A DNA stretch of 64,000 nucleotides from Gammaproteobacteria bacterium (GCA_003233345.1 QILK01000073.1:6413-70412); one strand, 5' to 3'; positions 8,991-25,510 are shown, counted from the first letter of the stretch. The notes: generated from the letters alone by a model not told the origin. Made by a program: numbers and translations.

Positions 8991-9029
8991 TCTGGCCTCC
9001 ATCTATCTGGATTTTAAGTCAGTGGAATA

Positions 9030-9248
9030 TTATCGTGCACGGAAGCTGATTCTGCCTTTGCTTAAATCGTATGGCGTTAGCTCAACCGTGACTTCGTCGC
9101 CGGTTAATATGCGAATATAATTTTTTCTCATTTTTCCGGATATATGCGCAGTCACAATGTGGCCATTTTCCAGTTCAACTCGAAACATGGTATTGGGTAA
9201 TGTTTCTATTACCTTGCCCTGCATTTTTATACAATCTTCTTTTGCCAT
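9030..9248 (-). CDS. infA: Translation initiation factor IF-1
   Basis: 72 aa ([48 protein letters not shown]...), near-identical to the canonical IF-1 S1-like fold. Confidence 0.92.
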
Positions 9249-9481
9249 ATTACACCTGAATTAAGTACTCTGTTGTTTAATAAAACTCATTCTAGAAGTC
9301 GTTTGGAATCTGGCGGAGGCACGACCAAATAACAGCAGGCATTATAATCACAGGATCAGTTAGATAACAGCGAAAGATGATTAATTTATTATGCGTTAAT
9401 ATTAAACACAATATTTTAGTAAATCATATAATTCATATTAAACAGCGGCTTACAATGATTGTTTAAAAAGAGAGAGGCTTT

Positions 9482-10210
9482 TTAAGTCTCCATTAACTCC
9501 CAGCGATTATTAATATATTGCTCAATGGGGCGGTATTGCTTTTTATAGCTCATTTTTGGGCATTCGTTAATAAGATAACCGAGGTATAGATAGTTGAAAC
9601 CCTGGTTCGCGGTTTCCTGTATTTGCCACAAAATGGCATATCCACCCAAACTATGTTTAGCAAGATCAGGATCAAAAAATGTATAAACTGCAGAGTAGCC
9701 ATCTTCCAGTTTATCCATGACAGCGACAGCAACCAGTTTATTGGCAAGATGAAATTCAATAAAAAAAGTTTGCGTCCAATGACAGGTTAGCATTTCCATA
9801 AATTCCCGAGGCTCTGGGTTGTCCATGCCACCATTTGGGTGACGGTTGTTGACGTATTTTTCATACAGGCTGAAATGTTCTTGGTTAAATTCGGGGAGGC
9901 GAATGGTCGCTTCGATTTTGCTGTTTCGTTTCAGAATTCGGGACTGGCCTCGATTAGGACTAAAGTTTTTGACGGGAATTCGAACGGGTATGCAAGAGGA
10001 GCAAAACTTACAATGCGGGCGATAAACCAGTTCACCACTTCTTCGAAATCCGGAGTAAATGAGCTGGCTATAGATATGATTGTCAAACCGTACCAATGGC
10101 TGCGCATAGATTTCCTGGCTGAATTTTCCAGGTAAATAACTGCAAGGGTGCTCGCCGGAAAGAAAGAGCGTTATTTTATCAGTAATATAGTCTGGCTTGT
10201 CTGAATGCAC
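9482..10210 (-). CDS. bpt: Aspartate/glutamate leucyltransferase (arginyl-tRNA-protein transferase-like, Bpt)
   Basis: 242 aa with an N-terminal CxxC...CxxC pattern (HPCSYLP...CKFCSSC) and a C-terminal ATE domain. Directly downstream of aat, as in many Proteobacteria. Confidence 0.75.
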   Translation of the reverse strand: MHSDKPDYITDKITLFLSGEHPCSYLPGKFSQEIYAQPLVRFDNHIYSQLIYSGFRRSGELVYRPHCKFCSSCIPVRIPVKNFSPNRGQSRILKRNSKIEATIRLPEFNQEHFSLYEKYVNNRHPNGGMDNPEPREFMEMLTCHWTQTFFIEFHLANKLVAVAVMDKLEDGYSAVYTFFDPDLAKHSLGGYAILWQIQETANQGFNYLYLGYLINECPKMSYKKQYRPIEQYINNRWELMET

Positions 10211-10932
10211 TAGTCCTCCATCAGCGTATTGAATGAATAAGCAATATCAGTATGCCAAAAACCGCGTTTGCTGGAACCACGGTATTCATCCAGTAGCTGT
10301 ACAAATTTTTCTCTGGGAATATCGATCGCACCAAATGAATCTAGATGCTCTGACTTAATTTGGCAATCAATCATTTTGTAACCCCATATTTTTAGCTGCT
10401 TGACCAGACAGACAAACGCAACTTTTGATGCGTCGCTTACCCGGCTAAACATGGACTCCCCAAAAAAAATATGGCCGAGCGCGATGCCATAAAGCCCACC
10501 AACCAGTGATTCACCCTCCCATGCTTCGATAGAATGTGCGTATCCGTGTGCATGCAAGTGTTCATAGGCTTTAATCATATCGTAGTTGATCCAGGTATTT
10601 GCATCACCCTTTCTCGGTTCGGCACAAGCACGAATAACATCGCTAAAAGCACGATCGGTGGTCACCGAAAGCACTTGCTTTTTTAAGGTCTTTTTCAAAC
10701 TGCGGGAGATTTTGATGGCCTCCGGAAATAAAACAGATCGTGGATGAGGTGACCACCACAAAATAGGCTCGCCTTCCGAATACCAAGGAAAAATACCCTG
10801 ACTGTAGGCGCTTAGTAATCTATCTTTTCCCAAGTCACCTCCCGTTGCCAATAAGCCATTGGGATCGTCATTAGCCAGCGTTACACTGGGAAATTCGTCA
10901 TCATTCTGAATTAAATATACGTGCATTGTCAC
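10210..10932 (-). CDS. aat: Leucyl/phenylalanyl-tRNA-protein transferase
   Basis: 240 aa with the GIFPWYSEGEPILWWSPHPR motif characteristic of Aat. infA-aat adjacency is conserved. Confidence 0.85.
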   Translation of the reverse strand: MTMHVYLIQNDDEFPSVTLANDDPNGLLATGGDLGKDRLLSAYSQGIFPWYSEGEPILWWSPHPRSVLFPEAIKISRSLKKTLKKQVLSVTTDRAFSDVIRACAEPRKGDANTWINYDMIKAYEHLHAHGYAHSIEAWEGESLVGGLYGIALGHIFFGESMFSRVSDASKVAFVCLVKQLKIWGYKMIDCQIKSEHLDSFGAIDIPREKFVQLLDEYRGSSKRGFWHTDIAYSFNTLMED

Positions 10933-10963
10933 CGCTGGTAATATTGATGAAGTTGTTCTTACT

Positions 10964-11181
10964 AATTATTTGACAAAATGGCTGGAATATCAATACTCTT
11001 TGAAAATGTTTTGAAAAACTAGGTAGATACAGGGGAAATCAGGTTTTGGTGCTAAATCGATTCTTGGGAAATAAACAGGTTACGGTATTTTTCAGATAAA
11101 TCGTGATATTCTGAGCCATATTCCATTGCATTTTCATTCATTCGATCAACCCAGAATTCGCCAACAATGGCCCAATCAGCA
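10964..11181. repeat. Direct repeat, copy A (about 217 bp, about 93% identical to 12674-12889)
   Basis: By-eye alignment: copy A (attatttgacaaaatgGCtggaatatcaatactctttgaaaatgttttgaaaAactagg ... ccaacaatggcccaatcagc) matches copy B at 12674-12889, with only a handful of mismatches. Confidence 0.85.
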
Positions 11182-11288
11182 GAATAAACCAGCGTGTACG
11201 GCCAAAGACCGTATGTAAAAGGTGGTATGGAGGCCACAATGACAAGCGCTAATGATTGAAGAATGATGACACTACCAAAGCTAATCAA
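11052..11288 (-). pseudogene. Truncated 3' gene fragment duplicating the C-terminus of the 208-aa protein at 12760-13386
   Basis: The C-terminal 45 aa (ADWAIVGEFWVDRMNENAMEYGSEYHDLSEKYRNLFISQESI) are almost identical to the end of ORF 12760-13386. The N-terminal part diverges and has no counterpart, so the fragment was created by the repeat. Confidence 0.55.
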
Positions 11289-11481
11289 GTAGGCTTATGG
11301 TATTCGAGTGGTTGTGCTAGCAGCCAGAATGAGTGTGTTAAGGAAATATTAAAAGGCGCTGCGGAGAAAAGGCGCACTCTACATCCTACCTATAAGAAAA
11401 AGCTCCACACGTATTGCAATAAAAAATTTAGTAAATAATAAAACGAGTATTTGTATCGCAAAACGTTAATGTGGAGCTTTC

Positions 11482-11742
11482 TTATGGCGCAACTGAGCAA
11501 TCATCCATATCGTATTCATCGAAGACGATCTCTACTACGGCATAGGGCGGGCCATTGAACCAGCTGGAGTTGTCGCTGATCTCGGTTTGCATAACCCGTT
11601 TCTGGCCATTGATCTTGAGACGTGTCACGACATGCGGCTCCAGGCAAATCGCTACCACCACCCGCGACCCGATATCAGTACAGCGCCACCGCTTATTACC
11701 GCAGAGAAATTCATCGCCGATAGAAAAATCCTTAAGCTTCAT
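11482..11742 (-). CDS. Hypothetical protein (86 aa)
   Basis: Clean ORF inside the repeat-flanked cassette; no recognisable motifs. Confidence 0.4.
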   Translation of the reverse strand: MKLKDFSIGDEFLCGNKRWRCTDIGSRVVVAICLEPHVVTRLKINGQKRVMQTEISDNSSWFNGPPYAVVEIVFDEYDMDDCSVAP

Positions 11743-11806
11743 AGTCTTTGATTAATACCGAATGCTCGAGCGCTTAGGGTATTTGGCACATTAAATTTAT
11801 CTCCCT

Positions 11807-12481
11807 TCATTCTTTTTGACTAATAAGAGTGGAAATATATGATTTTCTGTTACTCAAAAAGGTCATTAGTTCTTCGGGATAATCCTTTTTTACAGCTACC
11901 TTTACAGATTGACGAGAATTTAAAGCTTTGCGATAAGCCAGAACTCTAGGTGTCTTATCAAACACCGCAAAATCTGATATTTTTTCAAAAGTATCAAAGT
12001 ATCGAAATACTGTTGGATAAACGGAATCGACCAGATGAAATTTTGCACCGGAAAAAAAAGAACCCTCTTCAATATTACTTTCAAGTTGTTCAAATTTAGT
12101 CATTAAAAAATTACGCCGTTCTTCAAATTCAGCATAACTAGTCGCACTATAAAATTGCCCTATTACATCCAGAATTGATGAACCAAATTCAATCCAAGAA
12201 CGATGTTTGGCTCTTTGAATCGGGTCACTAGGGTGCAAACTCTCAGATGTTATTTCATTTAAAAATTCGCAAATAACAGCCGACTCGAAAATGACCTCGT
12301 TATCAACTATTAGTAGTGGAACTTTAGCAAGAGGGGACATCAATTCAAACCAGTCAGGTGTATTAGATAAATCGATGTACGTTCGTTTGTGAACAATGTT
12401 TTTTTCTTCAAGAACAATAATTGCTCGTTGTACATAAGGGCAGAGATTGTAACTCACTAATTCTAAATTATACTGAAGCAT
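11807..12481 (-). CDS. Glutathione S-transferase family protein
   Basis: 224 aa. N-terminal thioredoxin-like GST fold (SYNLCPYVQRAIIVLEEKNI...KVPLLIVDNEVIFESAVICEFL) followed by a helical C-terminal domain. Confidence 0.7.
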   Translation of the reverse strand: MLQYNLELVSYNLCPYVQRAIIVLEEKNIVHKRTYIDLSNTPDWFELMSPLAKVPLLIVDNEVIFESAVICEFLNEITSESLHPSDPIQRAKHRSWIEFGSSILDVIGQFYSATSYAEFEERRNFLMTKFEQLESNIEEGSFFSGAKFHLVDSVYPTVFRYFDTFEKISDFAVFDKTPRVLAYRKALNSRQSVKVAVKKDYPEELMTFLSNRKSYISTLISQKE

Positions 12482-12673
12482 GTTGTTTTCCTATTAACTT
12501 AACGTGTCAATTCAATAAAAACTTATCTACGGTAACAGCACAAGTTCGAATCAATTCTTCACCACTAGTCTCTCCATTGATCGCCTATACTTCTCTGTCT
12601 TCTTCTCCCGCATACTTTACCCCAGGTAAATCATTGAGGGCTTTGAAAATTACTTGGTAAAGATCACTTCCGA

Positions 12674-12889
12674 TTATTTGACAAAATGGGCGGAATATCA
12701 ATACTCTTTGAAAATGTTTTGAAAGACTAGGCAGATACAAGGGAAACAAGGTTTTGGCGCTAAATCGATTCTTGGGAAATAAACAGGTTACGGTATTTTT
12801 CAGATAAATCGTGATATTCTGAGCCATATTCCATTACATTTTCATTCATTCGATCAACCCAGAATTCGCCAACAATGGCCCAATCAGCG
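12674..12889. repeat. Direct repeat, copy B
   Basis: See copy A. Copy B contains the genuine 3' end of the 208-aa gene at 12760-13386 and about 85 bp downstream of it. Confidence 0.85.
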
Positions 12890-13386
12890 ATATTCATTTC
12901 ATATTGAGCAAGAACGTGATCTTTTTCCAGTCCGCGTTCGGAGGCAATATCAATATGCTCGATTATTTTTACCCACTTTTTAAATGAAACAGGATTAATT
13001 TGATTTTTGCTATTGCTTATGGATTTTGTGGCTGCAGATTTATCTTCGCTACAAAGGACTTGATTGCTTTGATAAGTGCGGCTAGCCGCGACAAAGGCCT
13101 GACTGTAGAGCATCGCAATATCCGCAGATTGATTGCAACTCATTCTTTTTAACCATTCTGAATTAACGGCTTCCCAGGCAATATCATTGAGCCCAGACTC
13201 ATTCAGTATTAGCTCAAGCTTTTCATTATTGGCAAGACGTGCATTGATGTTCGCCCAGGTTTGCAATGAAATTCCCATATAAGATTGTATTTCGCTACAG
13301 GCTTCTTGTTTGCTTGACGCTAGCTCTGTGTGTTGGTTGATTTTGGCATCGTTAAGAAAAGCCTGAAATTTGTCCTTCATGGTCAT
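12760..13386 (-). CDS. Hypothetical protein (208 aa)
   Basis: Long ORF with no recognisable motif. Its last about 45 codons are duplicated at 11052-11186. Confidence 0.55.
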   Translation of the reverse strand: MTMKDKFQAFLNDAKINQHTELASSKQEACSEIQSYMGISLQTWANINARLANNEKLELILNESGLNDIAWEAVNSEWLKRMSCNQSADIAMLYSQAFVAASRTYQSNQVLCSEDKSAATKSISNSKNQINPVSFKKWVKIIEHIDIASERGLEKDHVLAQYEMNIADWAIVGEFWVDRMNENVMEYGSEYHDLSEKYRNLFISQESI

Positions 13387-13832
13387 GGCTGGCTCCTTGT
13401 GTGTCTAATGTCGAATCTATAGTTAGTATCGTCGGATTAAACTTATGCCACGAACAGAAATAGTGACTAATATACTGAATTTATATTTAATTTATTATTT
13501 GAAATAACCTGAATAACATAAGGTTAACGTTAACACGATTTTAGAATAATCTGCATATATTTATGGCCAAAAAGAGCTAGCTAGACCGTTAATTATGCCA
13601 ATAGTGAGCATATAACCCACTATCCCGATTTAAGATCGGTTTTAATCTCAACGGGTAGTTTGCGATACCCTTATTATAATTTTCAAGAGTGTTCTCGAAA
13701 GCCTTTTTGGATTTGGAAAATATTTCATATTATCCAATATTTTTTTCAGTTAGACTTAAGCTATAGTGAAGGGGGTAACTCGTGTTATTTATTTAGAAAA
13801 ATTTTATTAACGGAAGCATTAAATACAAAAAT

Positions 13833-15842
13833 ATGGATATTAAAAAAACAGGTTTTGTGCGTTGCGGGATTATCGGTAGCTTCTTGTTTTTAAGTTTTTC
13901 GTTAATGGCAGCAGATGCGATAAGCAACGCAAAAAAAGCCACCCGTCTTGGACAATATAAAAAAGCATTTGAAATATTCTTATCAGCAGCACAAAAAGGT
14001 AATATCCCCGCTCAGTATCATGTCGGAACATTGTATTTGAATGGCAGAGGAATTAAAAAAGATATTAATGCTGGTGTAAAATGGACTCAGCATGCTGCGA
14101 ATGATGGTTATCCGCGAGCCCAGTATTATCTGGGAACGTTATATAATAATGGTGAACATGTAAAGGTTAATGTCAAGCTAGGAAAAAAGTGGCTGGGAAA
14201 AGCCGCTAAACAAGACTATGCACCAGCGGTCGCTAAGCTTAACGAACTGGATGAAGCGCCAGTGCATGCCCATCAGAAAAAATCGCAAGTGATGCAAGGG
14301 ACTCGCGAAGATAAAATTATTGTGGCTGTTCGCAGAGATAAACTGGATACAGTCAAAATATTACTTAGTTCAGGCGTTTCGGTCGACACCGTTGATACAG
14401 CCAGTCACAAAACGTTATTAATGATTGCGGCAGAAAAAGGGCATAATGATATTGTGTCTTTCCTATTAAAAAATCGGGCCGATGCGAGCAAAAAAGATAA
14501 AACAGGCGGAACGGCGCTTAACCATTCAATACGTAATAATCATACCAAGGCTGCGTTCCTTTTAATTCAGTGGGGTATTAAAATTGATGAACCTAACATC
14601 TATGGTCAGACGCCACTGATTATATCTGTTAAAGCTAAAAAGCTTTTACTGGTCAAAGCATTGGTCGCGAAAAAGGTTAATCTTAATAGCGTCGATAAAA
14701 AGGGTAACACCGCTCTTGACTATTCTCGTATGCTCGAACGGAAACAGATAGAGAAATTTTTATTGGATCATAAGGCGATCGCAAAAAGTACCTTGTCTAT
14801 TGTTCGCACTAACAGTAGCAATATCACCCGTGTTACGCCAACTTATAAAAACTGGACTTTATTGCTGGAGGCTTCCTGGCGAGGACAGGAAGGTTTGGTT
14901 AGCAGATTGTTAAAAAAAGGTGTGAGTATTAATAGCACCGACGAAGATGGTTATTCTGCGCTTATCCGTGCATCCTGGAAAGGGCATTTGCACATCGTGG
15001 AGATTCTGGTTGATGCCGGTGCGGATATTAATTATAAGCAAAAAAGAGGGTTGACCGCACTAATGCTGGCGGCAAAGCATAATCACGTAGAGGTCGTTAA
15101 TTATCTGCTAGCGAAAAACGCCAATGTTGAGCTACGGGATAATTCGGGGTCTAATGCCGTTATTATGGCCACAAAAAATAACAGCATAGATTCACTCAAG
15201 CGTCTGATCCGTGCCAAAGCCGATTTAAACACACGCGATAAAAGTAAACTAACGGCGCTTATGTGGGCGTCACAGAATAATAGTGTCACCATCAGTAAAA
15301 TGCTTGTGCATGGTGGTGCTCGAGTGGATATGCATGATAATAAAAGACAGGTTGCCTTGTGGCACGCAGCGCTCGCTGGATCAGAAAGGGCCTTTGATTA
15401 TTTGATGACAATAAGAATTGATATCAATAGTAAAAACAACGAAGGTGATACATTGTTAATGCGAATGGCCACTTCAGGTAAAGTGAGTATTGTTCGAAAA
15501 TTAATTAGGCGTGGTGCATCAGTAAGGCTAAAAAATAATATTGGTGATACGGCGTTAATGGCTGCCAGCGGGAAAAATAGACTAAAGGTAGTGCAAATAT
15601 TATTAACAGCCAGGTCTGATGTTAACGTAAAAAATAATATTAATAATACTGCGCTGATGATCGCGTCCAAAAAAGGCCATAGTCAGATGGTCAATTTATT
15701 GTTAAAGCATAAAGCCAGGGTCAGGATTCGCAATAAAGACAAAAAAAATGCAAGGGAACTGGCTCAGCAGGGTGGATTCAAGCGTATTGCCAAAATATTA
15801 GAAAAACATGAAAGCAATGGCGGGTTATTCGGTATTTTTTAA
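13833..15842 (+). CDS. Secreted Sel1-repeat / ankyrin-repeat fusion protein
   Basis: 669 aa with a signal peptide (FLFLSFSLMAADA). About 4 Sel1 repeats (AQYHVGTLYLNGRGIKKDINAGVKW; AQYYLGTLYNNGEHV...), then at least 12 ankyrin repeats with the recurring G-TALM-A---GH---V--LL--GA-VN pattern. Confidence 0.8.
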   Translation: MDIKKTGFVRCGIIGSFLFLSFSLMAADAISNAKKATRLGQYKKAFEIFLSAAQKGNIPAQYHVGTLYLNGRGIKKDINAGVKWTQHAANDGYPRAQYYLGTLYNNGEHVKVNVKLGKKWLGKAAKQDYAPAVAKLNELDEAPVHAHQKKSQVMQGTREDKIIVAVRRDKLDTVKILLSSGVSVDTVDTASHKTLLMIAAEKGHNDIVSFLLKNRADASKKDKTGGTALNHSIRNNHTKAAFLLIQWGIKIDEPNIYGQTPLIISVKAKKLLLVKALVAKKVNLNSVDKKGNTALDYSRMLERKQIEKFLLDHKAIAKSTLSIVRTNSSNITRVTPTYKNWTLLLEASWRGQEGLVSRLLKKGVSINSTDEDGYSALIRASWKGHLHIVEILVDAGADINYKQKRGLTALMLAAKHNHVEVVNYLLAKNANVELRDNSGSNAVIMATKNNSIDSLKRLIRAKADLNTRDKSKLTALMWASQNNSVTISKMLVHGGARVDMHDNKRQVALWHAALAGSERAFDYLMTIRIDINSKNNEGDTLLMRMATSGKVSIVRKLIRRGASVRLKNNIGDTALMAASGKNRLKVVQILLTARSDVNVKNNINNTALMIASKKGHSQMVNLLLKHKARVRIRNKDKKNARELAQQGGFKRIAKILEKHESNGGLFGIF

Positions 15843-15903
15843 GTTAGATTGTTTTTTACGTGCTGCCTGTTTGCAGATTTAAACTTAATTGGAATAATTT
15901 TTA

Positions 15904-16971
15904 ATGAGTATTACCTATAACAAAAAAAAGGAAAGATTAACACCGATAGTGCGTGAGCATTCTATAGAGCAGGTTTCACAGCCTCCGCGGGTTTCAGAGG
16001 CTTCACAAGGTTTAGCCGATAAGCTTCCCGACACCGCAAGCAAGCCACCAAAGAAAACCACGCAAAAGAAAACCAAACAAAAGCAAACAAAGCAAAAGAA
16101 AAAGCGCCCCGAATCAGTCATGCTTAAGTTTTTTACACTGGCATTTACTGCGCTTGTTTTATATGTGCTCTTCGATGGCTGGGTTAACCGGGTTGATGAG
16201 CGGTTTCTTCCCAATAAAGGCAGGGGGCTTTACTACGGTATTATTGGTGCGGCCATGATGGTGTTGTTATTGTTATATCCTGTCAGAAAGCACATGAGGT
16301 TTTTTAGAAAGTGGGGGAGGGTAACCTACTGGTTTCGGGCGCATATGATGCTGGGGATTATGGCACCGGTTTTGATATTGTATCATTGTGATTTTAAGTT
16401 GGGTTCATCTTGGAATAGTTTTGTGGCTTTAATGTCGATGTTTCTTGTTGTTTGTAGCGGCATTATCGGAAGATTTATATACCGACAAGTACATAATTTA
16501 AAAAATAGTCATCACTATACTTATGACCAAATGCGCAAAGTACTGGCGACAGAGAAATCAATTTTTGATCAAAGTTTCAAGTTGTCGGACGAGGCTATTA
16601 GTTTAATCAACAACTTTGAACTTTATTTGGGTAAGAAAAAGGGGGTTTTAGCGCATCTGATCTCGTTACCCATTATACACATGAAGGCCAAGGAGTATTC
16701 TGTCCGTTTAATATCCTTGATAAGGAAGCAGGTTTATAGCTCCCCTGAGTATCGCAATTTACCTCGACGTGCAAAGAAAAATATGTTTTTGGAGTATAAG
16801 GTGCTGGTGGATCGATATTTTAAAAATATTCGACGAGCAGCAAACTATTCGATTTACGAAAAACTATTTTCTTTATGGCATGTGTTGCACTTTCCGCTAT
16901 TTATCCTCCTGATATTTAGCTCTGCGCTGCATATTATTATCGGTTTTATGTATGGCTATATTCAATTCTAA
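15904..16971 (+). CDS. Integral membrane protein with polybasic N-terminus (hypothetical; first gene of the cytochrome cluster)
   Basis: 355 aa. The N-terminal about 70 aa are soluble and lysine-rich (KPPKKTTQKKTKQKQTKQKKKRP). Four or more hydrophobic helices follow, with conserved His (RAHMMLGIMAPVLILYHCDF), then a C-terminal soluble segment and a last TM helix. Confidence 0.55.
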   Translation: MSITYNKKKERLTPIVREHSIEQVSQPPRVSEASQGLADKLPDTASKPPKKTTQKKTKQKQTKQKKKRPESVMLKFFTLAFTALVLYVLFDGWVNRVDERFLPNKGRGLYYGIIGAAMMVLLLLYPVRKHMRFFRKWGRVTYWFRAHMMLGIMAPVLILYHCDFKLGSSWNSFVALMSMFLVVCSGIIGRFIYRQVHNLKNSHHYTYDQMRKVLATEKSIFDQSFKLSDEAISLINNFELYLGKKKGVLAHLISLPIIHMKAKEYSVRLISLIRKQVYSSPEYRNLPRRAKKNMFLEYKVLVDRYFKNIRRAANYSIYEKLFSLWHVLHFPLFILLIFSSALHIIIGFMYGYIQF

Positions 16972-17050
16972 TGATCGTTGCCAAGTTATAATTAATGGAA
17001 AGTAATTAAATGACGGCTCAATTGTGGTAAGTGATATCGTTAGAGCTAAA

Positions 17051-18619
17051 ATGTCTATTTATATTAAAAAATTTTTGACGATAGTCTTAATACTGTCCTC
17101 TTTTATTTCACTCAATGCATTTGCTGACCGGGTCGAAGCGTTTGTGATGCCGGGTGAGGTGATTAAAGGGCATGCCAAGCTGGAAACCAATTGTGTCAAG
17201 TGTCACAAACGATTTGATAAGAAAGCACAAACTCGATTATGTCTGGATTGCCATGATAAAATAGACGCTGTTATGAAAAAACGTAGTGGCTTTCATGGAA
17301 AATCACCGATTGTTAGGAAGAACCTGTGTAGTGCGTGTCACACTGAGCATAAAGGCCGCGATGCTGATATCATCAAGTTGGATAAACGTAATTTTAATCA
17401 TAAATTCACCAACTTTCTACTTAAAGGCCAGCATAAGAAACTTGATTGTAACAGTTGTCACCAAGCCGGTAAGAAATATACAGAGGCAAAATCGACAGTT
17501 TGTTATGGCTGTCATAAGAAAGATGACAAACACAAATTACACCTGGGTAAAAAGTGCGAAAAGTGTCACACGGAACAAAAATGGAAAAAAACCAAGTTTG
17601 ATCATGATAAAACCAAATTTAAGCTGACCGGAAAACACAAGGAAATTGTATGTGAAAGTTGTCATGCTAACGAGCGATATAAAGGTATCCCAACGAAGTG
17701 TGCAACTTGTCATAAGATTAATGATGTTCATAAGGGTAAATTAGGCGACAAATGTGACGAGTGTCATACCACCAAAAGTTGGGGGAAAATGTCATTTGAT
17801 CATGATAACGAAACTGAATTTCCGATACGAGGAAAGCATAAACAACTGAAATGTAAGGCTTGTCATAAAAAAGACCCCAAAGACGAGGAACTTGCAAAGC
17901 AATGTTACGCCTGCCATAAAGTTGACGATAAACATAAAAGTAATTTTGGCCAGAAATGTCAAACGTGTCATAGCGAAAAGGGGTGGGATCACTCGAAGTT
18001 TGATCATGACCGGGATACTAAGTTTCGATTGAAAGAAAAGCACACCAAGGCAGATTGCACAGATTGTCATAAAAAACCTTTGTACAAAACCAAGACCAGC
18101 AGCAAATGTTATAGTTGTCATAAAATCGATGATAAACACAAAGGCAGTCAGGGTAAGAATTGCCAGAAATGTCATAACGAAAAAAATTGGAAATCAAAAA
18201 TTGCCTTTGATCATGATTTTACTAAGTTCCCGCTGGTTGGATTACATGCGCTGGTAAACTGCAAAGAATGTCATACGCAGGAAAGTTTTTCCGCTACCAA
18301 AAAAAGCTGTATCAGCTGCCATAGGAAAAAGGATGTACATAAACTAAGATTGGGGACTTTTTGTGAATTATGTCATACCCCAAATGGATGGAAAATCTGG
18401 AATTTTGATCATGACCGGCAAACTGAATATCCATTAAAAGGTAAACATAAAGGTCTTAATTGCATTAAATGTCATAAACGTCCCGTGAACAAAAAGAGTA
18501 TAAAGTTGGACGCAAACTGTTCAAATTGTCATAGTCAAGACGATCCTCATGATGGAAAGTTTGGTAGCAGTTGTGCAAGTTGCCACAAAGTGTCTTCTTT
18601 TAAGGACATAGATATTTAG
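17051..18619 (+). CDS. Multiheme c-type cytochrome: 21 CxxCH motifs in seven triheme c7-like modules, lysine-rich
   Basis: The track ORF starts at GTG 17024, but ATG 17051 gives a classical signal peptide (MSIYIKKFLTIVLILSSFISLNAFA). I hand-counted 21 CxxCH motifs. There are seven repeats of about 72 aa, each shaped like FDHD-T-F-L-GKH----C--CH ... C--CHK-DD-HKG--G--C--CH. My count gives about 98 Lys (about 18%). Confidence 0.85.
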   Translation: MSIYIKKFLTIVLILSSFISLNAFADRVEAFVMPGEVIKGHAKLETNCVKCHKRFDKKAQTRLCLDCHDKIDAVMKKRSGFHGKSPIVRKNLCSACHTEHKGRDADIIKLDKRNFNHKFTNFLLKGQHKKLDCNSCHQAGKKYTEAKSTVCYGCHKKDDKHKLHLGKKCEKCHTEQKWKKTKFDHDKTKFKLTGKHKEIVCESCHANERYKGIPTKCATCHKINDVHKGKLGDKCDECHTTKSWGKMSFDHDNETEFPIRGKHKQLKCKACHKKDPKDEELAKQCYACHKVDDKHKSNFGQKCQTCHSEKGWDHSKFDHDRDTKFRLKEKHTKADCTDCHKKPLYKTKTSSKCYSCHKIDDKHKGSQGKNCQKCHNEKNWKSKIAFDHDFTKFPLVGLHALVNCKECHTQESFSATKKSCISCHRKKDVHKLRLGTFCELCHTPNGWKIWNFDHDRQTEYPLKGKHKGLNCIKCHKRPVNKKSIKLDANCSNCHSQDDPHDGKFGSSCASCHKVSSFKDIDI

Positions 18620-18939
18620 AAAAGGAGTATGCGTGTAGAAATAGAATATATAAGTTGTGCTTGGATTAATATTACTTTATATTAGACGCGTGTGGTTTTT
18701 TCACACCTCATAAAAATTGTTAGTGGTATATGAAGGTAGATCAGATACCGCTATTAGAGAGGTAAAGCAATAATATAAAATTGAATAGTTAAATGATTTA
18801 TTTAAGACTCTATGCTAGCAACCGAAATTTAGTGTGTATTACGCTTATGGACGAAATGAAATTATCAAAAATGTAATTTCATAAATACACAAATAATTAA
18901 CTGGGATAGGATTTCCCACAAAATAAAAAGCGATATCAA

Positions 18940-20688
18940 ATGGACACTTGGGAAAGGACGCTGTGCAGATTGCATTTGAGGGGCTATCTTAAGTTCCTAG
19001 TGCTTGTCCTGCTAACCTTTACCTTTCTCGTTATCTCAAATCCAGTTTCTGCTAAAAAAGTCACTCAGAAATTTAACCACGACAAAACCGGGTATACACT
19101 TGAAGGTATACATGTCTACGCGGATTGTGAAAGCTGTCATGCGCGTGGAATTTTTAAAGGCACACCTAGAACCTGTCAAGGTTGTCATGCACAAGCCGGA
19201 CGTATTACTGCTACACGAAAACCGATAAATCATATATCGTCATCTGCCGACTGTGGCCAGTGCCATACATCAACGGCTTGGAAACCGGCGAAAATTGATC
19301 ATTCAAAAATCACGGATTCCTGTAATAGTTGTCACAACGGCACAACAGCTACGGGTAAATCAAAGAATCATATTACCACCAATGCACAGTGTAACGTTTG
19401 TCATAGTTCACGTGCCTGGGTTCCGGCAAACTTTAATCATAGTACTATCACCAGTGGTTGTATTAAATGTCACAATGGCACAACCGCGATTGGGAAGACA
19501 AAAGGCAAACATCCGCCCTCGAGTAATAGTTGTGAGAGTTGTCACACGATCAATTCGTTTAGCTTTAATCATACCAATGTAAGGGGCGATTGCTTTAGTT
19601 GTCATAATGGTACGACCAGTGGCGGCAAGAAAAGCGCACGGCACGTCGTTAGCGACAACCGTTGTGAAGTTTGCCATAAGAATAATCGTGCTTGGACATT
19701 TACTCACGGTTCAGGCATCACCGGGTGTAGCAACTGCCACTCGGGCCAGACAAAAGGAAAGCAAAAAGGTGCCAAGCATATTGTTACCGTAGCGAGTTGT
19801 GAATCTTGCCATAAAAGTACCAGTACATGGACGTTTGATCACAGTAACGTAAAATCTGGATGTACAAATTGCCACCGGGGACAAACAGCCGGTAGGCAGA
19901 TAAACCCAGCTACTCATGTAAAAGTGGCGCCAACAGTAGATTGCGCGGTTTGTCACGGCAGTAATACATCATGGACTGTCAATGTCGTGGTAAACCATGC
20001 GAGTTTTACTGGTACTTGTAGCGGATGCCACAACAAGAACGCGACGCATATGCCTACTTCCAATAGCTGTGGTGGTTGTCATAAAACAACAAAAGGTGGA
20101 TTTCTAAAAGCAAATACCAATGTCGATCATCGGCAAATTACCGTTTCATGCCAGACTTGTCATACTGGCAAATATGCCACCTCAAAGAAAAGTACAACAC
20201 ATGTTGCGACGACTAACGCCTGTGCAAATTGTCACAAGTCGACTGCCCAAGGTGGTTGGCCAACGAATATAAAGATGGATCATACGCAATTGGTCGGTGC
20301 GGGTGCCTGTGCTACCTGTCATAAGACCGGTGGTGTTGGGACACCAAAGCCGCAGGTACATATGAATACCACACTGGCATGTGATATTTGCCACGACAAG
20401 ACCACGACTTGGGCTATCAGGTCGATCACTTACACCCATCAGGCCGGATTGACTCAAGGTTGGTTTAAACATGGTTCGCTTACGTCTTGTATAGACTGTC
20501 ATGCTTCCAATGGCCTTGTGCAATGGGAAACCGGTCTCTATAAGAAGTCGTGCGCTGGTTGTCATGCCAGGCAGTACGAACCGGAAAATGACCATTTACC
20601 ACCGATTACTTCGATAGAGGCTAATAAACATTGCGGTGGTACTGTACCAGGTGGTACTGGCTGTCATGGTAGAAATCGAGGGTTTTAA
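18940..20688 (+). CDS. Multiheme c-type cytochrome: 21 CxxCH motifs, Thr/Asn/Gly-rich
   Basis: 582 aa with a hydrophobic signal-like segment (LKFLVLVLLTFTFLVISNPVSA). An in-frame TTG near 18976 with a GGA before it would give a shorter, cleaner signal peptide. I hand-counted 21 CxxCH motifs. CxxCHNGTT(A)xGK and NH/KH(x5-7)CxxCH units recur, supplying the distal His needed for bis-His haems. Confidence 0.85.
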   Translation: MDTWERTLCRLHLRGYLKFLVLVLLTFTFLVISNPVSAKKVTQKFNHDKTGYTLEGIHVYADCESCHARGIFKGTPRTCQGCHAQAGRITATRKPINHISSSADCGQCHTSTAWKPAKIDHSKITDSCNSCHNGTTATGKSKNHITTNAQCNVCHSSRAWVPANFNHSTITSGCIKCHNGTTAIGKTKGKHPPSSNSCESCHTINSFSFNHTNVRGDCFSCHNGTTSGGKKSARHVVSDNRCEVCHKNNRAWTFTHGSGITGCSNCHSGQTKGKQKGAKHIVTVASCESCHKSTSTWTFDHSNVKSGCTNCHRGQTAGRQINPATHVKVAPTVDCAVCHGSNTSWTVNVVVNHASFTGTCSGCHNKNATHMPTSNSCGGCHKTTKGGFLKANTNVDHRQITVSCQTCHTGKYATSKKSTTHVATTNACANCHKSTAQGGWPTNIKMDHTQLVGAGACATCHKTGGVGTPKPQVHMNTTLACDICHDKTTTWAIRSITYTHQAGLTQGWFKHGSLTSCIDCHASNGLVQWETGLYKKSCAGCHARQYEPENDHLPPITSIEANKHCGGTVPGGTGCHGRNRGF

Positions 20689-20759
20689 TTAGAGAACGTA
20701 TATCAATTGGATCACACGGCGGTTTAGTAACAACTAGAGACTAAATAGAGCGTATAAAC

Positions 20760-23216
20760 ATGAAATCAGTCATAAGAATAGTATTGGCTTTTAGTATAAC
20801 GGTACTGGGTATCGTTAGTGGTCAAGCGCAAACTGTTACTGAAGAGTTTAACGTTTTAAAAACGCTGGAAGCACGCATTAATATTGCTGTCTCTGAATTT
20901 ACGATACATTTTAACCTGCCCGTAAACTACTTGGGTCATTCGCCAACAAAAGAAGGCAAACACATTATTATTCGTGTTGCCCCAATCGGTCGAAACCCCC
21001 GGGATGTAACCGGATTTACTTCAAGTACCGCTTTGAATAATCCAATGAGTTTTGGTGGAAGGGAAGTTTTGTCCTGGACCGCGACCAAAGAGCTGCCTTT
21101 AACGGAAGTGGAATATGAAGGCACCAATATTGGTGGACCGATTATTGAAGTCAGTTTCACGCGTAGTGTTAAATACAAAGTTGTCCCAAGTAAGGATTTG
21201 CGTAGTCTGACTATTCTGGTCGAAAACGAGAAGCAGGCAAAAAGCACATCTAAGCATAACTACTTGCTTAACCTGTCGACTTCGGGAAAACCCTTTGATG
21301 TTACCAGTTTGGACACTGGAAAATTTCCAGAAAACTATGTTTTTTTCCCTACCCATAGTGTAGTCGACAACAAGTCCGTCAATCACCTGAAAGTGGGGTT
21401 TTTTAAAACCCCAAGGGATATTCGTGAAGCCCTTAAAAAGTTAAAACCCTATTATCCAGATGCAAAGGTAATGTTATCAACGGATGAGGATATAAAGGTT
21501 GCAAAACAATACCAGCGAGATCAGAAGCTAATCGCTAAAACAACACCACTAAAAACCCCCGCCCCCGGAAAAGAATCACCGGCGATAGCAAGTAATTCGC
21601 GCGATATTATGGAAAAGGCAAAGTTTACTTTGCTAGAGGGCAATTATGATAAAGCAATTGAGCAATATACCGTCGTGATTCAAAAAGATCCGAATGGCCA
21701 ATATGCACAGGAAGCCCAGGAATACCTGGGATTAACCCGGCAGCGTAATAATCAGGTTGCCCATGCAATTGCAGAATACAAAAAATATTTGCAAAAATAT
21801 CCGCAAGGCGAGGGCGCCACGCGTGTTAAGCAGCGTCTTAATTCCTTATTAACCGCGTCACATGATCCGCGAGGGAAATTACCGGGGACTACGACGGAAG
21901 ATAAAAAATCACCTTGGCGGCTCTATGGAAATGTTTATGGTAATATCAGGTACGATAATTCTAAAACCGTTATCAAGGCTACTAATACTAAAATCAAAAA
22001 TCAGACGACCACTTATGTTACCAGTTTAAATGCGACTGCCAGAAAAAGAACAGAAAAAAGTGAGACAAAAATACGATTCACTGGTATATATCGAGATGCG
22101 GATGATGGTACAAATCGCAATAACAGAAGTGGACGCGTTAACTATTTTTATGTAGACCATAAAGATAAAGTGCGTAATTATGGTTACCGTATTGGTCGTC
22201 AGGCAAAAAGTAGCGGTGGCGTCTTGGGCCGTTTTGATGGCATATCGGTGGATTATAAAATTAGTTCGCGTTATAAGGTTAACTTCGTTTCTGGTTACCC
22301 CGTCAATTTTACCAAATTTGGACAAATTGAAACTAACCGTTATTTTTATGGTGTTAACACTGACATTTCCACCAAGAATAAATATTTGACTTTTAATGTA
22401 TTTGCTATCAATCAGGTTATTGATGGTATTAGTGATCGGGAGTCAATCGGTGGCGAGGTTCGCTATATGAACCCGAAGCACTCATTGTTTGCATTGGTTG
22501 ATTACGACCATTCTTATCAGGAATTAAATACTGTCTTCGTTTCCAATAACTGGCGCTTTAAAAATAAGGCGGTTGTTAATGTAACTTATGATTATAGAAG
22601 AAGCCCAGTATTAACAACTAGTAATGCGTTGCAAGGGCAGACGGAAGGATCAATAAAAGAGCTTTTACGTCGACTTAGCGAGAGCCAGATCAGACAGTTA
22701 GCCCGTGATCGTACGGCGACCTACAAATCGGTATCGGTGGGAGGCACTTATCCACTTGCCCATGACTTGTATCTAAACGGAAATGTTACGGTTGCTGAGC
22801 TCGAAGGTACAGTTGCGTCGGGTAATGTTGCGGCTGTTCCTGATAGTAGTCAAGAATATTTTTATTCACTACAATTAATAAAAAACAGTTGGTTAAAGGC
22901 CGGTGATGTATCAATATTTGGTATTCAGTTTGCTGATGCAACAACTTATCAGCGGACATCCTATTCGTATGGCATCCGCTATCCTCTAACACCCAGAATC
23001 CGAATTCGTCCAAAGTTTGAATATGATGTACAGGATATAAATGACGGCACTGAAGTCACTACCTACCGCCCCTCTTTACGTGTTGATTATCGTGCGAGCA
23101 ATAGATGGCGTTGGGAACTGGAAAGCGGCTATTCATATGCTGAAATCAGGAATTCTGCCAGTGACAGCGATCAGACCGATTACTTTATCAGTATGGGCTT
23201 TATTTATGATTTCTAA
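20760..23216 (+). CDS. Outer-membrane protein: N-terminal domain, TPR-like repeats, C-terminal beta-barrel (putative porin partner of the cytochromes)
   Basis: 818 aa with a signal peptide (MKSVIRIVLAFSITVLGIVSGQA). TPR-like helical repeats lie in residues about 290-370 (YDKAIEQYTVVIQKDPNGQYAQEAQEYLGLT...AIAEYKKYLQKYPQGEGAT). The C-terminal about 440 aa show alternating hydrophobic/polar amphipathic beta-strand periodicity and end in ...GFIYDF, the aromatic C-terminal residue used as a BAM signal. Confidence 0.7.
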   Translation: MKSVIRIVLAFSITVLGIVSGQAQTVTEEFNVLKTLEARINIAVSEFTIHFNLPVNYLGHSPTKEGKHIIIRVAPIGRNPRDVTGFTSSTALNNPMSFGGREVLSWTATKELPLTEVEYEGTNIGGPIIEVSFTRSVKYKVVPSKDLRSLTILVENEKQAKSTSKHNYLLNLSTSGKPFDVTSLDTGKFPENYVFFPTHSVVDNKSVNHLKVGFFKTPRDIREALKKLKPYYPDAKVMLSTDEDIKVAKQYQRDQKLIAKTTPLKTPAPGKESPAIASNSRDIMEKAKFTLLEGNYDKAIEQYTVVIQKDPNGQYAQEAQEYLGLTRQRNNQVAHAIAEYKKYLQKYPQGEGATRVKQRLNSLLTASHDPRGKLPGTTTEDKKSPWRLYGNVYGNIRYDNSKTVIKATNTKIKNQTTTYVTSLNATARKRTEKSETKIRFTGIYRDADDGTNRNNRSGRVNYFYVDHKDKVRNYGYRIGRQAKSSGGVLGRFDGISVDYKISSRYKVNFVSGYPVNFTKFGQIETNRYFYGVNTDISTKNKYLTFNVFAINQVIDGISDRESIGGEVRYMNPKHSLFALVDYDHSYQELNTVFVSNNWRFKNKAVVNVTYDYRRSPVLTTSNALQGQTEGSIKELLRRLSESQIRQLARDRTATYKSVSVGGTYPLAHDLYLNGNVTVAELEGTVASGNVAAVPDSSQEYFYSLQLIKNSWLKAGDVSIFGIQFADATTYQRTSYSYGIRYPLTPRIRIRPKFEYDVQDINDGTEVTTYRPSLRVDYRASNRWRWELESGYSYAEIRNSASDSDQTDYFISMGFIYDF

Positions 23217-23280: not shown

Positions 23281-23658
23281 TTGGCCGCTATAGTGTTTAC
23301 TCATCAACATTGTAGTAGATTCCCCATGCGTATAAATGATCTGTGTGAAGCGATAGAAACAACCAAATGGGATATTGCACTGGAAGCATTGCTGAATGAA
23401 ACCTTCAGTAAAAATCACAGGATTGATCTGGAAATCTTAAGTCAACTGTCAAAGCAATTTTCAATTCGATTTGAAGATTTGGTGGTAACCTTGTTTGAGC
23501 TTACTTTTTGTGAGCAATGGCAATATATGGATATAAACGGAACACCGCAAATGTTAAAACATCAGGATCTGGATAAACTTTATTTAAAAAGCCGGATCTA
23601 CTTAGCCAGCGCTAGCCATCTTACCGGCTATTGGCAACCGCTAGCGGATAAACGATAA
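23281..23658 (+). CDS. Hypothetical protein (125 aa; the start may be the internal Met at about 23326)
   Basis: ORF with no recognisable motifs. Confidence 0.35.
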   Translation: MAAIVFTHQHCSRFPMRINDLCEAIETTKWDIALEALLNETFSKNHRIDLEILSQLSKQFSIRFEDLVVTLFELTFCEQWQYMDINGTPQMLKHQDLDKLYLKSRIYLASASHLTGYWQPLADKR

Positions 23659-23764
23659 TTTTTTAGGGGTTTGCTAACTTTTTTGTTACGGCTAACAAAG
23701 CTGTTATTAGCTTATATAATTAGTAATAACAGAGTTGTTTTATAGCTGAAACAGGAAGAGTAAT

Positions 23765-24271
23765 ATGAGCGAAAAATATCAGGTAGTCTTTAAAGGCGAG
23801 CTGGTTGAAGGCTGTGACCTGGAAGAGACCAAAGTAAAAGTAGCTGCTTTGTTTAAAACGTCGGTCGATGCGATCGATAAACTGTTTTCCGGCTCCCGAG
23901 TCGTTATCAAGGACGACCTGGAAAAAAGTGTTGCTGATAAATATTATGCAGCGTTGTTTAAATGCGGTGCGCAATGCGAAGTTATTAATAAGTCTGAGCC
24001 AAGCGTTACCGCTATTGAAACCGATAAAACTGACAAGAGCGTTGCTGACACTGATTCGTTAGAGAAAGACTCTGATCTACTGGCCCCGCCAGGCGTTATC
24101 ATCATCAAGGGTGAAAAAATACCAAAACCTGTTATTGATACCAGCGCATTTTCGATGGCCGATGTCGGGGAAACGATTATCGAGGCACAAAAGGTGAAAG
24201 AGCCAGAAATAAATATCGAATCGTTGGAAATGGCGGAAATTGGGGCAGATTTACTGTCGTCGAAAGAATAA
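23765..24271 (+). CDS. Hypothetical acidic protein (168 aa)
   Basis: Clean ORF, strongly acidic (D/E-rich). No motif recognised. Confidence 0.45.
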   Translation: MSEKYQVVFKGELVEGCDLEETKVKVAALFKTSVDAIDKLFSGSRVVIKDDLEKSVADKYYAALFKCGAQCEVINKSEPSVTAIETDKTDKSVADTDSLEKDSDLLAPPGVIIIKGEKIPKPVIDTSAFSMADVGETIIEAQKVKEPEINIESLEMAEIGADLLSSKE

Positions 24272-24355
24272 CTAGTCTGTAGAATCTGATTTTTTCAATT
24301 GCCGCTACACTTGAAAATCAAAGCGCGATAAAATAGGGTTTTAATCGCCTTTAAA

Positions 24356-24721
24356 GTGTTAATTTATATGTATATCAAAAAACTGGGTCTCTGGCTGAAA
24401 TTAATTCCGGGCTATCTAAATACGCTACGAAAACTACTGTTTATAAGCGCAATCGTTATTATTGTCTTTCCAGCAGATGCAAATACAGAAATCAGTGTAG
24501 AAGGCTGGGGAATGTTTTCAACGTTAATGATTCCTATTTTTGCACCCATTACTTTTTTTGTTCTATTACTGGATACGATAATGGCAAAGATTGTAATGGG
24601 TGAATACGAAGGCAAGCAACAAGACAAATATAAATCGATCGTTATTCTCGACTTGATTTTAGCGGGTGGTATTTTTGTTGCATGGTATCCCTATTTTGCA
24701 ACTATCATGAGTAGCGGTTAA
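24356..24721 (+). CDS. Hypothetical small membrane protein (121 aa, about 3 TM helices)
   Basis: Hydrophobic helical segments; no motifs. Confidence 0.4.
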   Translation: MLIYMYIKKLGLWLKLIPGYLNTLRKLLFISAIVIIVFPADANTEISVEGWGMFSTLMIPIFAPITFFVLLLDTIMAKIVMGEYEGKQQDKYKSIVILDLILAGGIFVAWYPYFATIMSSG

Positions 24722-24742
24722 GCTTACCTAGACCCTATCAAT

Positions 24743-25510
24743 ATGAATTCAAAACTTATTATTTTGTGGTTAAGCCTGGTTTTTTCATCGTACAGCCATT
24801 CGCAGAATTTATCTAATTCAACGGTGCCCGTTGCTGATAGGCTTCCTTCGGTGTCTGTAAATGACACGTCTAAGAGCAAACTTAATAGCGTTAAAGATAC
24901 ACTTAGCCCGGCTCAGTCTTATCTCAGTTGGAAGGCAGCAGCAGAAAAGGGTGATACTAATTCTCAATATAATCTGGGTCTTGTTTATGAGCAAGGATTG
25001 GGTACAGCCGTTGATCTGCAACAAGCAGCACGTTGGTATAAAAAGGCATCCATGCAGGGACACGCTGTTGCAGCATATAATCTAGCCACAATGGCTCACC
25101 AGGGCCACGGAATGAAGGCAGATATAAAAATGGCGAAGCATTGGTACGAATTTGCTGCCAAAAAAGGCTATTTACTTGCTCAGGCCAGTCTCGGGTTTTT
25201 GTATGCAACAGAAAACACACCTTTTACCGATGTAAAGAAAGCGGTTTACTGGTTTAACAGAGCGGCCAAGCTCGGTCATCCAGAGGCTCAGTTTAATCTT
25301 GGTATGATGTATTCTACTGGCAGAGGAATAGAACTTGATTATATCAAAGCTTATGCTTGGTTCAATGTATCAGGATTTAACCGTTACAAAAATGCGATTG
25401 AAAGTCGAAATTTTGCGGCCGCCCGGCTTACTGTAAAGCAACTTGAATCAGCCCAGGCTCTATCGAATCACTATCGCGAACTCTACTTTAAGAAGCAAAC
25501 GCCTAAATAG
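24743..25510 (+). CDS. Secreted Sel1-repeat protein
   Basis: 255 aa with a signal peptide (LIILWLSLVFSSYSHS). About 5 Sel1 repeats (SQYNLGLVYEQGLGTAVDLQQAARWYKKA; AAYNLATMAHQGHGMKADIKMAKHWYEFAAKKG; AQFNLGMMYSTGRGIELDYIKAYAWFN). Confidence 0.75.
   Translation: MNSKLIILWLSLVFSSYSHSQNLSNSTVPVADRLPSVSVNDTSKSKLNSVKDTLSPAQSYLSWKAAAEKGDTNSQYNLGLVYEQGLGTAVDLQQAARWYKKASMQGHAVAAYNLATMAHQGHGMKADIKMAKHWYEFAAKKGYLLAQASLGFLYATENTPFTDVKKAVYWFNRAAKLGHPEAQFNLGMMYSTGRGIELDYIKAYAWFNVSGFNRYKNAIESRNFAAARLTVKQLESAQALSNHYRELYFKKQTPK

Follow-up and report, generated by a model that had tools for sequence, protein, structure and literature searches.

Porin-cytochrome systems of the PCC3 class were defined from genomes in 2017 (He et al., Front Microbiol 8:1584; PMC5566968) and combine a porin, an extracellular multihaem cytochrome (MHC), an MHC in the periplasm and a protein of the inner membrane (IMP). 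According to that description, the extracellular MHC is repeat-rich and rich in T, S, A and G, with a median of 34 haems, the periplasmic MHC has a median of 21 haems, and the IMP, which He et al. likened to the ferric-reductase/NOX domain, is a protein of ~300 amino acids (aa) with five transmembrane (TM) helices, SGXXG on TM4 and WX3HX13H on both TM3 and TM5. In the PCC3 system of a Riftia endosymbiont, the periplasmic MHC is built of seven 66-aa repeats with 21 haems, at 26 aa per haem (PMC5566968 supplement). Sideroxydans lithotrophicus ES-1 carries the clusters Slit_0867-0870 and Slit_1446-1449, the latter in the order IMP (Slit_1446), periplasmic cytochrome (Slit_1447), extracellular cytochrome (Slit_1448) and porin (Slit_1449); Leptothrix cholodnii SP-6 is a further bearer, and PCC3 is present in many Gallionellaceae (Hoover et al.). 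Here, we analyzed a stretch of 64,000 nucleotides from a Gammaproteobacteria bacterium (GCA_003233345.1, QILK01000073.1:6413-70412; hereafter the window), which holds a compact group of genes for an IMP, two 21-haem cytochromes (MHC1 and MHC2) and an outer-membrane protein (OMP). We put the probability at about 0.7 that these genes, together with the gene upstream of them, form a five-gene, PCC3-type trans-envelope multihaem cytochrome module that extends from 13833 to 23216. The features of this region are as follows.

13833..15842, + strand: exported protein of 669 aa with Sel1 and ankyrin (ANK) repeats (Sel1-ANK), recognized by Pfam, a profile match and a signal-like N-terminus
15904..16971, + strand: IMP, inner-membrane protein of 355 aa, probable di-haem b-type TM cytochrome
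17024..18619, + strand: MHC1, secreted 21-haem cytochrome c of 531 aa, with a GTG start and a probable start at ATG 17051
18620..18939, no strand: AT-rich spacer of 320 bp between both cytochrome genes
18940..20688, + strand: MHC2, secreted 21-haem cytochrome c of 582 aa
20760..23216, + strand: OMP, outer-membrane protein of 818 aa

The list of open reading frames (ORFs) and their translation show that the IMP, MHC1, MHC2 and OMP genes are all co-oriented on the + strand, and the coordinates that an initial annotation of this DNA had given for the four ORFs were borne out exactly. Its gaps of 79, 320 and 71 bp were confirmed as well, the 79-bp figure corresponding to the MHC1 start at ATG 17051. 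That annotation knew of no close described homolog of this organization, a view that does not hold, since the PCC3 type that He et al. described in 2017 comprises these four components in the same order. In the window, all four are present and co-oriented, and their order is that of Slit_1446-1449. The IMP has five TM helices with SGXXG and both WX3HX13H motifs on helices 3, 4 and 5, and it is 355 aa long rather than ~300 because of a non-conserved N-terminal extension. MHC1 contains its 21 CXXCH motifs at 25.3 aa per haem in seven repeats of 67-68 aa, and MHC2 consists of 38% T+S+A+G, has 27.7 aa per haem and is made of ~23-aa repeats. Since the composition, gene order and diagnostic motifs match the 2017 definition, the cluster is, as judged from its sequence and from the published description of the PCC3 references, a PCC3 member and not an undescribed system.

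The K-rich, polybasic extension of the IMP (residues 1-70) is lineage-specific and not conserved in homologs. In the AlphaFold2 model, the IMP has five TM helices, of which four pass the hydropathy threshold and TM3 stays below it, and a helical loop of ~125 aa, presumably cytoplasmic, separates TM4 and TM5. The motifs read W143x3H147x13H161 on helix 3, S185GIIG on helix 4 and W325x3H329x13H343 on helix 5. His147, His161, His329 and His343 are invariant in 30 homologs, as are the residues of both WX3HX13H motifs and of SGXXG, so the polybasic membrane protein with conserved His in its TM helices that had been annotated is recovered here with a K-rich N-terminus and four invariant His. Its fold resembles di-haem b bundles, and there was no Pfam match to PF01794 or cytochrome b561. 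The IMP is probably a di-haem b-type TM cytochrome in which two haems b would be bound.

MHC1 has a Sec-type signal peptide, a lysine content of 18.5% and exactly 21 CXXCH motifs, with no CX3CH or CX4CH, and its seven triheme repeats follow the register 43/128/196/263/331/399/466. It matches Pfam Cytochrome_C7 (E 2.9e-26), in agreement with the seven c7-like triheme modules proposed for it previously. No match was found among PDB sequences, and the DmsE/MtrA-family model TIGR03508 gave 16 bits (E 6e-3; cut-off 192.2). When 37 MHC1 orthologs were aligned, all 21 haem motifs fell into register and exactly 42 His were conserved in at least 90% of the sequences, a number that implies putative bis-His ligation of every MHC1 haem. 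The invariant 21 haems suggest that the length of MHC1 is set by the width of the periplasm, a point that Hoover et al. make as well. A separate observation concerns GCA_054014035.1 (L001), the closest long relative, whose deposited calls include an antisense ORF of 484 aa without Pfam match (6566-8020, - strand) where a 537-aa ORF with 21 CXXCH lies at 6440-8053 on the + strand; the gene for the K-rich 21-haem cytochrome of L001 appears to be mis-annotated in the public record. Apparent conserved ORF families antisense to MHC1 and OMP were rejected as artefacts of the mechanical ORF list.

In MHC2, too, CXXCH occurs exactly 21 times, whereas CX3CH and CX4CH do not occur, and the protein is built of monohaem repeats in a T/S/G/N-rich chain, which fits the second secreted 21-haem cytochrome of different repeat architecture that had been annotated. 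It carries a Sec signal (VSA|KK) and lacks a lipobox, as do 60 of 62 homologs. Residues 58-251 show weak similarity to the DmsE/MtrA family (TIGR03508 E 2e-20, 73.3 bits; cut-off 192.2), which is stronger than that of MHC1, both being below the cut-off. In addition, MHC2 is similar to domain II/IV of MtrC/MtrF (E 1e-14) and locally to OmcA (PDB 4lmh, E 1.3e-8), and the MtrC/OmcA model TIGR03507 gave 25 bits at a cut-off of 209. The MHC2 orthologs have in common the N-terminal motif F[DN]HxxTG[FY]xLxGxH and the haem register +18, +34, +60, +84, +107 and onward, and their haem number ranges from 13 to 73; the counts from metagenome-assembled genomes (MAGs) are lower bounds because of masked or N runs and split ORFs in the MHC2 genes. 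In several MAGs (L002, L030 and L055 among the loci) the repeat-rich gene is masked or holds N runs, and in some it is split.

The structure of the OMP was predicted with confidence by AlphaFold2 with 42 homologs (mean pLDDT 82.7). The protein starts with a signal peptide and ends in YDF, and it contains the following parts, among them a tetratricopeptide repeat (TPR) domain.

20856-21224 (aa 33-155), + strand: beta-sandwich, from the AlphaFold2 model
21261-21533 (aa 168-258), + strand: SPOR-like beta-alpha domain, from the AlphaFold2 model and the family profile
21597-21857 (aa 280-366), + strand: YbgF/BamD-like TPR domain, from the model and the family profile
21915-23213 (aa 386-818), + strand: beta-barrel of ~22 strands, from the AlphaFold2 model
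22605-22715 (aa 616-652), + strand: three-helix insert between strands 13 and 14

Weak TPR matches were obtained for residues 280-360, and the OMP family profile matched the DamX SPOR domain (E 5.7e-5) and the TPRs of BamD/CpoB/YbgF; it matched no solved barrel by sequence. An 818-aa protein with TPR-like repeats and a C-terminal barrel ending in YDF had been annotated and was found as such, and a barrel is indeed predicted. The contrast drawn at that time, between a TPR-containing barrel and the 20-28-strand type, falls away: the modelled barrel, with ~22 strands, is of ordinary size, and the TPR part is predicted to be a separate periplasmic module. The most conserved segments of the OMP are the TPR and the 616-652 insert, with the insert consensus SPxLTTSNALQGQ...EDEIRQLAxDRTA. 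The insert could act as plug or constriction loop, or a cytochrome could dock on it. Identity of the OMP is 30-37% to most homologs and 52-53% to two MAGs.

The TPR-plus-barrel architecture recalls BcsC and PgaA, and Foldseek with the OMP returned generic barrels only (ushers, porins, AlgE), including AlgE and usher barrels among many matches with E ~1e-8 to 1e-10 and TM-scores of at most 0.3. An OMP that exports a polymer in the manner of BcsC, PgaA or AlgK/AlgE, or that is a generic porin beside unrelated cytochromes, is nevertheless very improbable. At the thresholds used, searches of Pfam, NCBIfam and PDB sequences did not return BcsC, PgaA, AlgE or AlgK, and MtrB, BcsC and PgaA matched the OMP neither at these thresholds nor among the top structural matches listed. 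The barrel has ~22 strands, and the best of its large structural alignments are with 22-strand TonB-dependent transporters. Around the OMP gene, the window has no synthase or glycosyltransferase genes, and the synteny with cytochrome and IMP genes is conserved across phyla. These data contradict an exporter, which was rejected on sequence, strand number and neighbourhood; the OMP is not the BcsC or PgaA ortholog that had been named as a possible objection to an electron conduit, and no synthase accompanies it in the window.

To what extent the four genes belong together was judged from the relatives of the OMP, of which 158 were scored in a 90%-clustered protein set. In a collection with one genome per species, 507 genomes encode such a relative, and at E<=1e-30 the OMP matches 1366 protein clusters formed at 50% identity. 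Their hosts include Thiogranum, Thiohalobacter, Sedimenticola, Woeseiaceae, Chromatiaceae and Methylococcaceae as well as Desulfuromonadaceae, Thermodesulfobacteriota, Myxococcota, Nitrospirota, Leptospirillia and Binatia, and the closest relatives are Gammaproteobacteria MAGs. We analyzed 84 loci; the counts below refer to the informative 40, which hold 7 kb or more of upstream sequence before the OMP gene. An IMP homolog was present in 38/40 loci, at least two multihaem ORFs were present in 38/40, and an ORF with exactly 21 CXXCH was present in 31/40. The order IMP, 21-haem cytochrome, variable cytochrome, OMP was found in nearly all of them, and the co-occurrence of the cytochromes and the OMP in other genomes, which had been suggested as a check, was established in 38 loci. 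The only exceptions were L064 (CP070738.1), with an OMP homolog and no IMP or multihaem ORF within 10 kb, and L074, where a 47-haem ORF is present and both the IMP and a 21-haem ORF are missing.

The synteny of the window with L001 runs from clpA to rne and includes the small lineage-specific ORFs downstream of the OMP gene. Because of this synteny, the cluster appears to be an old, vertically kept feature of a low-GC gammaproteobacterial lineage. The region has a GC content of 0.385-0.43, compared to ~0.42 for the window, and its composition is unremarkable. The initial annotation had placed the cluster in an accessory-looking stretch; that impression is not upheld, as the GC content is not anomalous and synteny extends to a relative in which the OMP has only 52% identity. 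A genomic island was likewise rejected on the unremarkable GC content and on the synteny with L001 from clpA/aat to rne.

All-against-all clustering of the locus ORFs revealed three further conserved families, namely Sel1-ANK, an iron-sulphur (FeS) flavoprotein and a stand-alone beta-sandwich. The protein encoded at 13833-15842 begins with a signal-peptide-like sequence and has about 2 Sel1 repeats (E 3e-16) followed by ~15 ankyrin repeats (Pfam Ank_2 E 8e-76). It is matched by the profile of the ~670-aa Sel1-ANK family, which is found next to the IMP in 32 loci, with E 2.8e-188. Members from four other loci have the same Sel1-then-ANK architecture and signal-like N-termini, and the gene, present in 30/40 informative loci, either directly precedes the IMP gene or belongs to a divergent operon. 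Because of the profile match, the shared architecture, the signal peptide and the presence in 30/40 loci, the Sel1-ANK protein of the window is, as far as these features predict, a conserved fifth component of the module that lies outside the coordinates annotated at first.

Effectors of intracellular bacteria often contain Sel1 and ANK repeats, the Sel1-ANK protein has weak NCBIfam similarity to Legionella Ank effectors (all far below the cut-offs), and PCC3 was noted in tubeworm endosymbionts (PMC5566968). The region could on these grounds be read as a host-interaction island, with the Sel1/ankyrin proteins as secreted effectors aimed at eukaryotes and the cytochromes supporting life as a symbiont or pathogen. 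This is hardly credible, since a ~670-aa Sel1-ANK protein stands beside the IMP in 30/40 loci from many phyla, in sediment, groundwater and vent MAGs, and since it has a Sec-type signal and no effector context. Moreover, the likeness to the Ank effectors is at repeat level only, and the window otherwise holds housekeeping and fatty-acid metabolism genes, with no secretion system found. The data thus contradict host effectors, and the earlier remark that the cluster is bracketed by Sel1/ankyrin proteins needs revision, in that the upstream Sel1-ANK protein belongs to the system and is conserved in free-living lineages of sediments and vents.

The FeS-flavoprotein, of ~436 aa, is anchored in the membrane at its N-terminus and combines a ferredoxin domain (2x[4Fe-4S]) with a TrxR/YpdA-like flavoprotein domain for NAD(P) binding. 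It occurs in 31/40 informative loci, and in most related loci its gene lies beside that of the IMP. The third family, a stand-alone ~160-aa paralog of the OMP beta-sandwich domain, occurs in 22/40; its gene was not found in the window, where the profile matches only the N-terminal domain of the OMP itself. The text of He et al. 2017 does not mention ankyrin, Sel1, TPR or pyridine-nucleotide proteins (PMC5566968), literature text searches returned nothing relevant on PCC3 with ankyrin or on porin-cytochrome with tetratricopeptide, and supplements and text searches returned nothing on Slit_1445, Slit_1450 and ankyrin. The Sel1-ANK protein, presumably periplasmic, and the FeS-flavoprotein, presumably cytoplasmic, are unreported conserved partners of the PCC3 class. 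As a side observation, plasmid pEMTOL02 of Emticicia oligotrophica (Bacteroidota; NC_018749.1, locus L085) has at 5851-17649 a fused ccsA, followed in this order by a homolog of the IMP, in which both WX3HX13H motifs occur, a homolog of the flavoprotein (E 1e-171) and cytochromes with 23 and 40 haems. The window OMP has no homolog there, and a 538-aa hypothetical protein of the plasmid is unrelated to it. The region resembles a PCC3-like module, distant and with another partner in the outer membrane; from this gene set, the association of IMP, flavoprotein and cytochromes outlives a change of that partner.

Starting from the observed genes, motifs, domain architecture, conserved synteny and fit to the PCC3 definition, we infer how the trans-envelope module would work, including haem b binding, the threading and surface exposure of MHC2, the roles of the accessory domains and the direction of flow. 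The IMP would hold two b-type haems between TM3 and TM5, ligated by His147/His329 towards the cytoplasm and by His161/His343 towards the periplasm, and would pass electrons across the inner membrane. MHC1, as a rigidly conserved 21-haem chain with all haems bis-His ligated, would bridge the periplasm. The MtrA-like N-terminal part of MHC2 would occupy the lumen of the ~22-strand barrel, and its chain of 23-residue repeats, variable in number between species, would reach the cell surface. The beta-sandwich, SPOR-like and TPR domains of the OMP may fasten the complex to peptidoglycan and serve as a dock for the wire, and the exported Sel1-ANK solenoid may serve as an assembly scaffold or chaperone. 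That the N-terminal part of MHC2 sits in the barrel, with the rest projecting outward, is suggested by its conserved N-terminal anchor, its MtrA-like similarity, the adjacency of the barrel gene and the free number of repeats. The logic of inner-membrane component, periplasmic haem wire and outer-membrane barrel set out in the initial annotation finds support in the synteny of 38/40 loci and in the barrel prediction.

Several findings weigh against this model. The structure models are single apo chains. The surface exposure of MHC2 is an assumption, because it has no lipobox and secretion-system genes were not found near its gene. The FeS-flavoprotein was not found in the whole 64-kb window by profile search. 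The PCC3 class was called functionally unverified (10.1101/2025.02.27.639646); both ES-1 PCC3 clusters are downregulated on Fe(II) (PMC8788666). Finally, the link to the reference proteins of ES-1 and L. cholodnii is indirect, running through motifs, repeats, gene order and homologs in Sedimenticolaceae, to which the tubeworm endosymbionts are assumed to belong. The PCC3 reference organisms were not among the 120 matches listed of 4482 relatives when the Thalassolituus IMP homolog was used as query.

Some of the same evidence would suit a store or wire confined to the periplasm, in which both cytochromes act as a high-capacity buffer or link redox enzymes of the inner membrane and the periplasm, and in which the barrel is a mere scaffold, anchored to peptidoglycan and outer membrane, that lets no electrons through. 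Neither of the cytochromes is a lipoprotein, and no genes for type II secretion adjoin them; the OMP bears peptidoglycan/envelope domains (SPOR-like, YbgF/BamD-like TPR), and its conserved insert at 616-652 could plug the barrel; furthermore, PCC3 is not induced by Fe(II) in ES-1 (PMC8788666), and a capacitor role was also raised by Hoover et al. We regard such a periplasmic arrangement as unlikely, if the most serious of the alternatives. A 22-strand barrel beside a cytochrome gene in 38/40 loci is hard to explain as an anchor, and the 13-73 haems of MHC2, compared to the fixed 21 of MHC1, fit one confined and one unconfined partner. In addition, MHC2 is nearer than MHC1 to both MtrA, which lies in a barrel, and OmcA/MtrC, which lie at the surface.

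For the trans-envelope module as a family, the flavoprotein partner in related loci and the all-bis-His haems favour a flow of electrons out of the cell and onto an extracellular acceptor; for the window this holds only weakly, as the flavoprotein gene is not there. The gene was not found in L001 either. Tentatively, PCC3-type systems may be larger than four genes and include, besides the Sel1-ANK protein, an FeS-flavoprotein that feeds the IMP directly and makes a quinone-independent, NOX-like wire to the surface; the lineage of the window would then be a streamlined variant that kept the ankyrin scaffold, lost or relocated the flavoprotein and uses another donor or acceptor. If this is true, the wire would start in the cytoplasm, at NAD(P)H or a donor of ferredoxin level, and end at the cell surface, and, through the flavoprotein link, electrons from NAD(P)H would reach minerals or partner cells while bypassing the quinone pool. 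PCC3 is among the most widespread predicted modules for extracellular electron transfer. The window cluster adds little to it alone, and its main value is as an entry to the Sel1-ANK and flavoprotein partners, which suggest an assembly route and an electron source for the class. The comparison of loci also yields hypotheses for the class as a whole, namely that the first cytochrome is a periplasmic ruler with its haems fixed at 21 and all bis-His ligated, that the second joins a conserved anchor to a variable number of 23-residue haem repeats, and that SPOR-like and TPR domains tether a 22-strand barrel.

The 320-bp spacer between the cytochrome genes contained no ORF, no Rfam match and no consensus promoter or terminator above shuffle expectation. 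Its sequence is not conserved with the spacers of L001 or L005, and L001 has a spacer of similar length; we treated the stretch as a plain spacer. Downstream of the OMP gene lies one further group.

23281-25510: three small ORFs (125, 168 and 121 aa, without Pfam match) and a 255-aa Sel1 protein

These ORFs are conserved with L001 only and not with other PCC3-type loci, and because their conservation is limited in this way, they appear to be lineage-specific neighbours outside the module. The rest of the window is housekeeping, with mnmA, icd, clpA, ate and aat and with rne and rluC; further genes are plsX, fab genes, tmk and holB and genes of beta-oxidation. No secretion system was found among these other genes, and the window has no rRNA, tRNA or Rfam match. 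At 52251-61970, where the GC content is 0.45-0.47 and exceeds that of the remaining window, lie genes for a fusion of DUF4395 and rhodanese and for a carbonic anhydrase of the alpha (eukaryotic) type, together with a beta-oxidation block of fadD, fadB-like, thiolase and FadE-like genes.

Compared to the known conduits, the locus resembles MtrCAB, MtoAB and PioAB in that a periplasmic multihaem cytochrome gene adjoins a gene for a large outer-membrane barrel and in that MHC2 is weakly similar to the DmsE/MtrA family and to MtrC/OmcA domains; a haem wire inserted into a barrel, as proposed here, is the same idea as in MtrCAB. It differs in the barrel, which has ~22 strands and no detected MtrB homology. 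The MtrB barrel has 26 strands. Further differences are the haem numbers (21+21 instead of 10+10), the fact that MHC2 is not a lipoprotein and the presumed di-haem b-type partner in place of a CymA-type tetrahaem quinol dehydrogenase; an MtrB-family barrel, a DmsE/MtrA decahaem cytochrome and a surface decahaem lipoprotein, which mark MtrCAB/MtoAB, were not found in the locus. With the OmbB-OmaB-OmcB/Ext systems of Geobacter, it shares the set of barrel, periplasmic cytochrome and surface cytochrome, the last being presumed here, and c7-type triheme blocks (Pfam Cytochrome_C7) are found in Geobacter periplasmic and polymeric cytochromes as well. There is no family-level match (the GSU2203-type decahaem model gave 41 bits at a cut-off of 325), the haem numbers and the IMP differ, and PCC3 was treated as non-homologous to the Geobacter type (PMC5566968).

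The IMP of PCC4 has the same signature of five TM helices, SGXXG and double WX3HX13H, and a porin gene is present, but PCC4 has three small periplasmic cytochromes and no extracellular MHC, whereas the window has two 21-haem cytochromes; PCC4 subgroup II includes an Fe-S protein (PMC5566968). The His pairs of the IMP, 13 residues apart on two helices, may be compared to those of the FRD family (PF01794), cytochrome b561 and E. coli CybB, and this spacing would suit the stacking of two b haems across the membrane. As in FRD/NOX proteins, an NAD(P)-binding flavoprotein goes with the membrane part, in related loci as a separate polypeptide encoded alongside; it is of the TrxR/YpdA type with a ferredoxin domain rather than an FNR-like NOX dehydrogenase domain, and the IMP differs by its five TM helices, its long TM4-TM5 loop and its lack of a Pfam match to either family. 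From the published PCC3 systems, the window differs as a divergent low-GC gammaproteobacterial branch, in the polybasic extension of ~70 aa on its IMP and in its short MHC2 of 21 haems versus a median of 34, and the Sel1-ANK protein, the FeS-flavoprotein and the SPOR, TPR and beta-sandwich domains of the porin go beyond the published description. The barrel itself, being of the 22-strand class, is again like PCC3, for which the L. cholodnii porin was reported with 22 TM regions.

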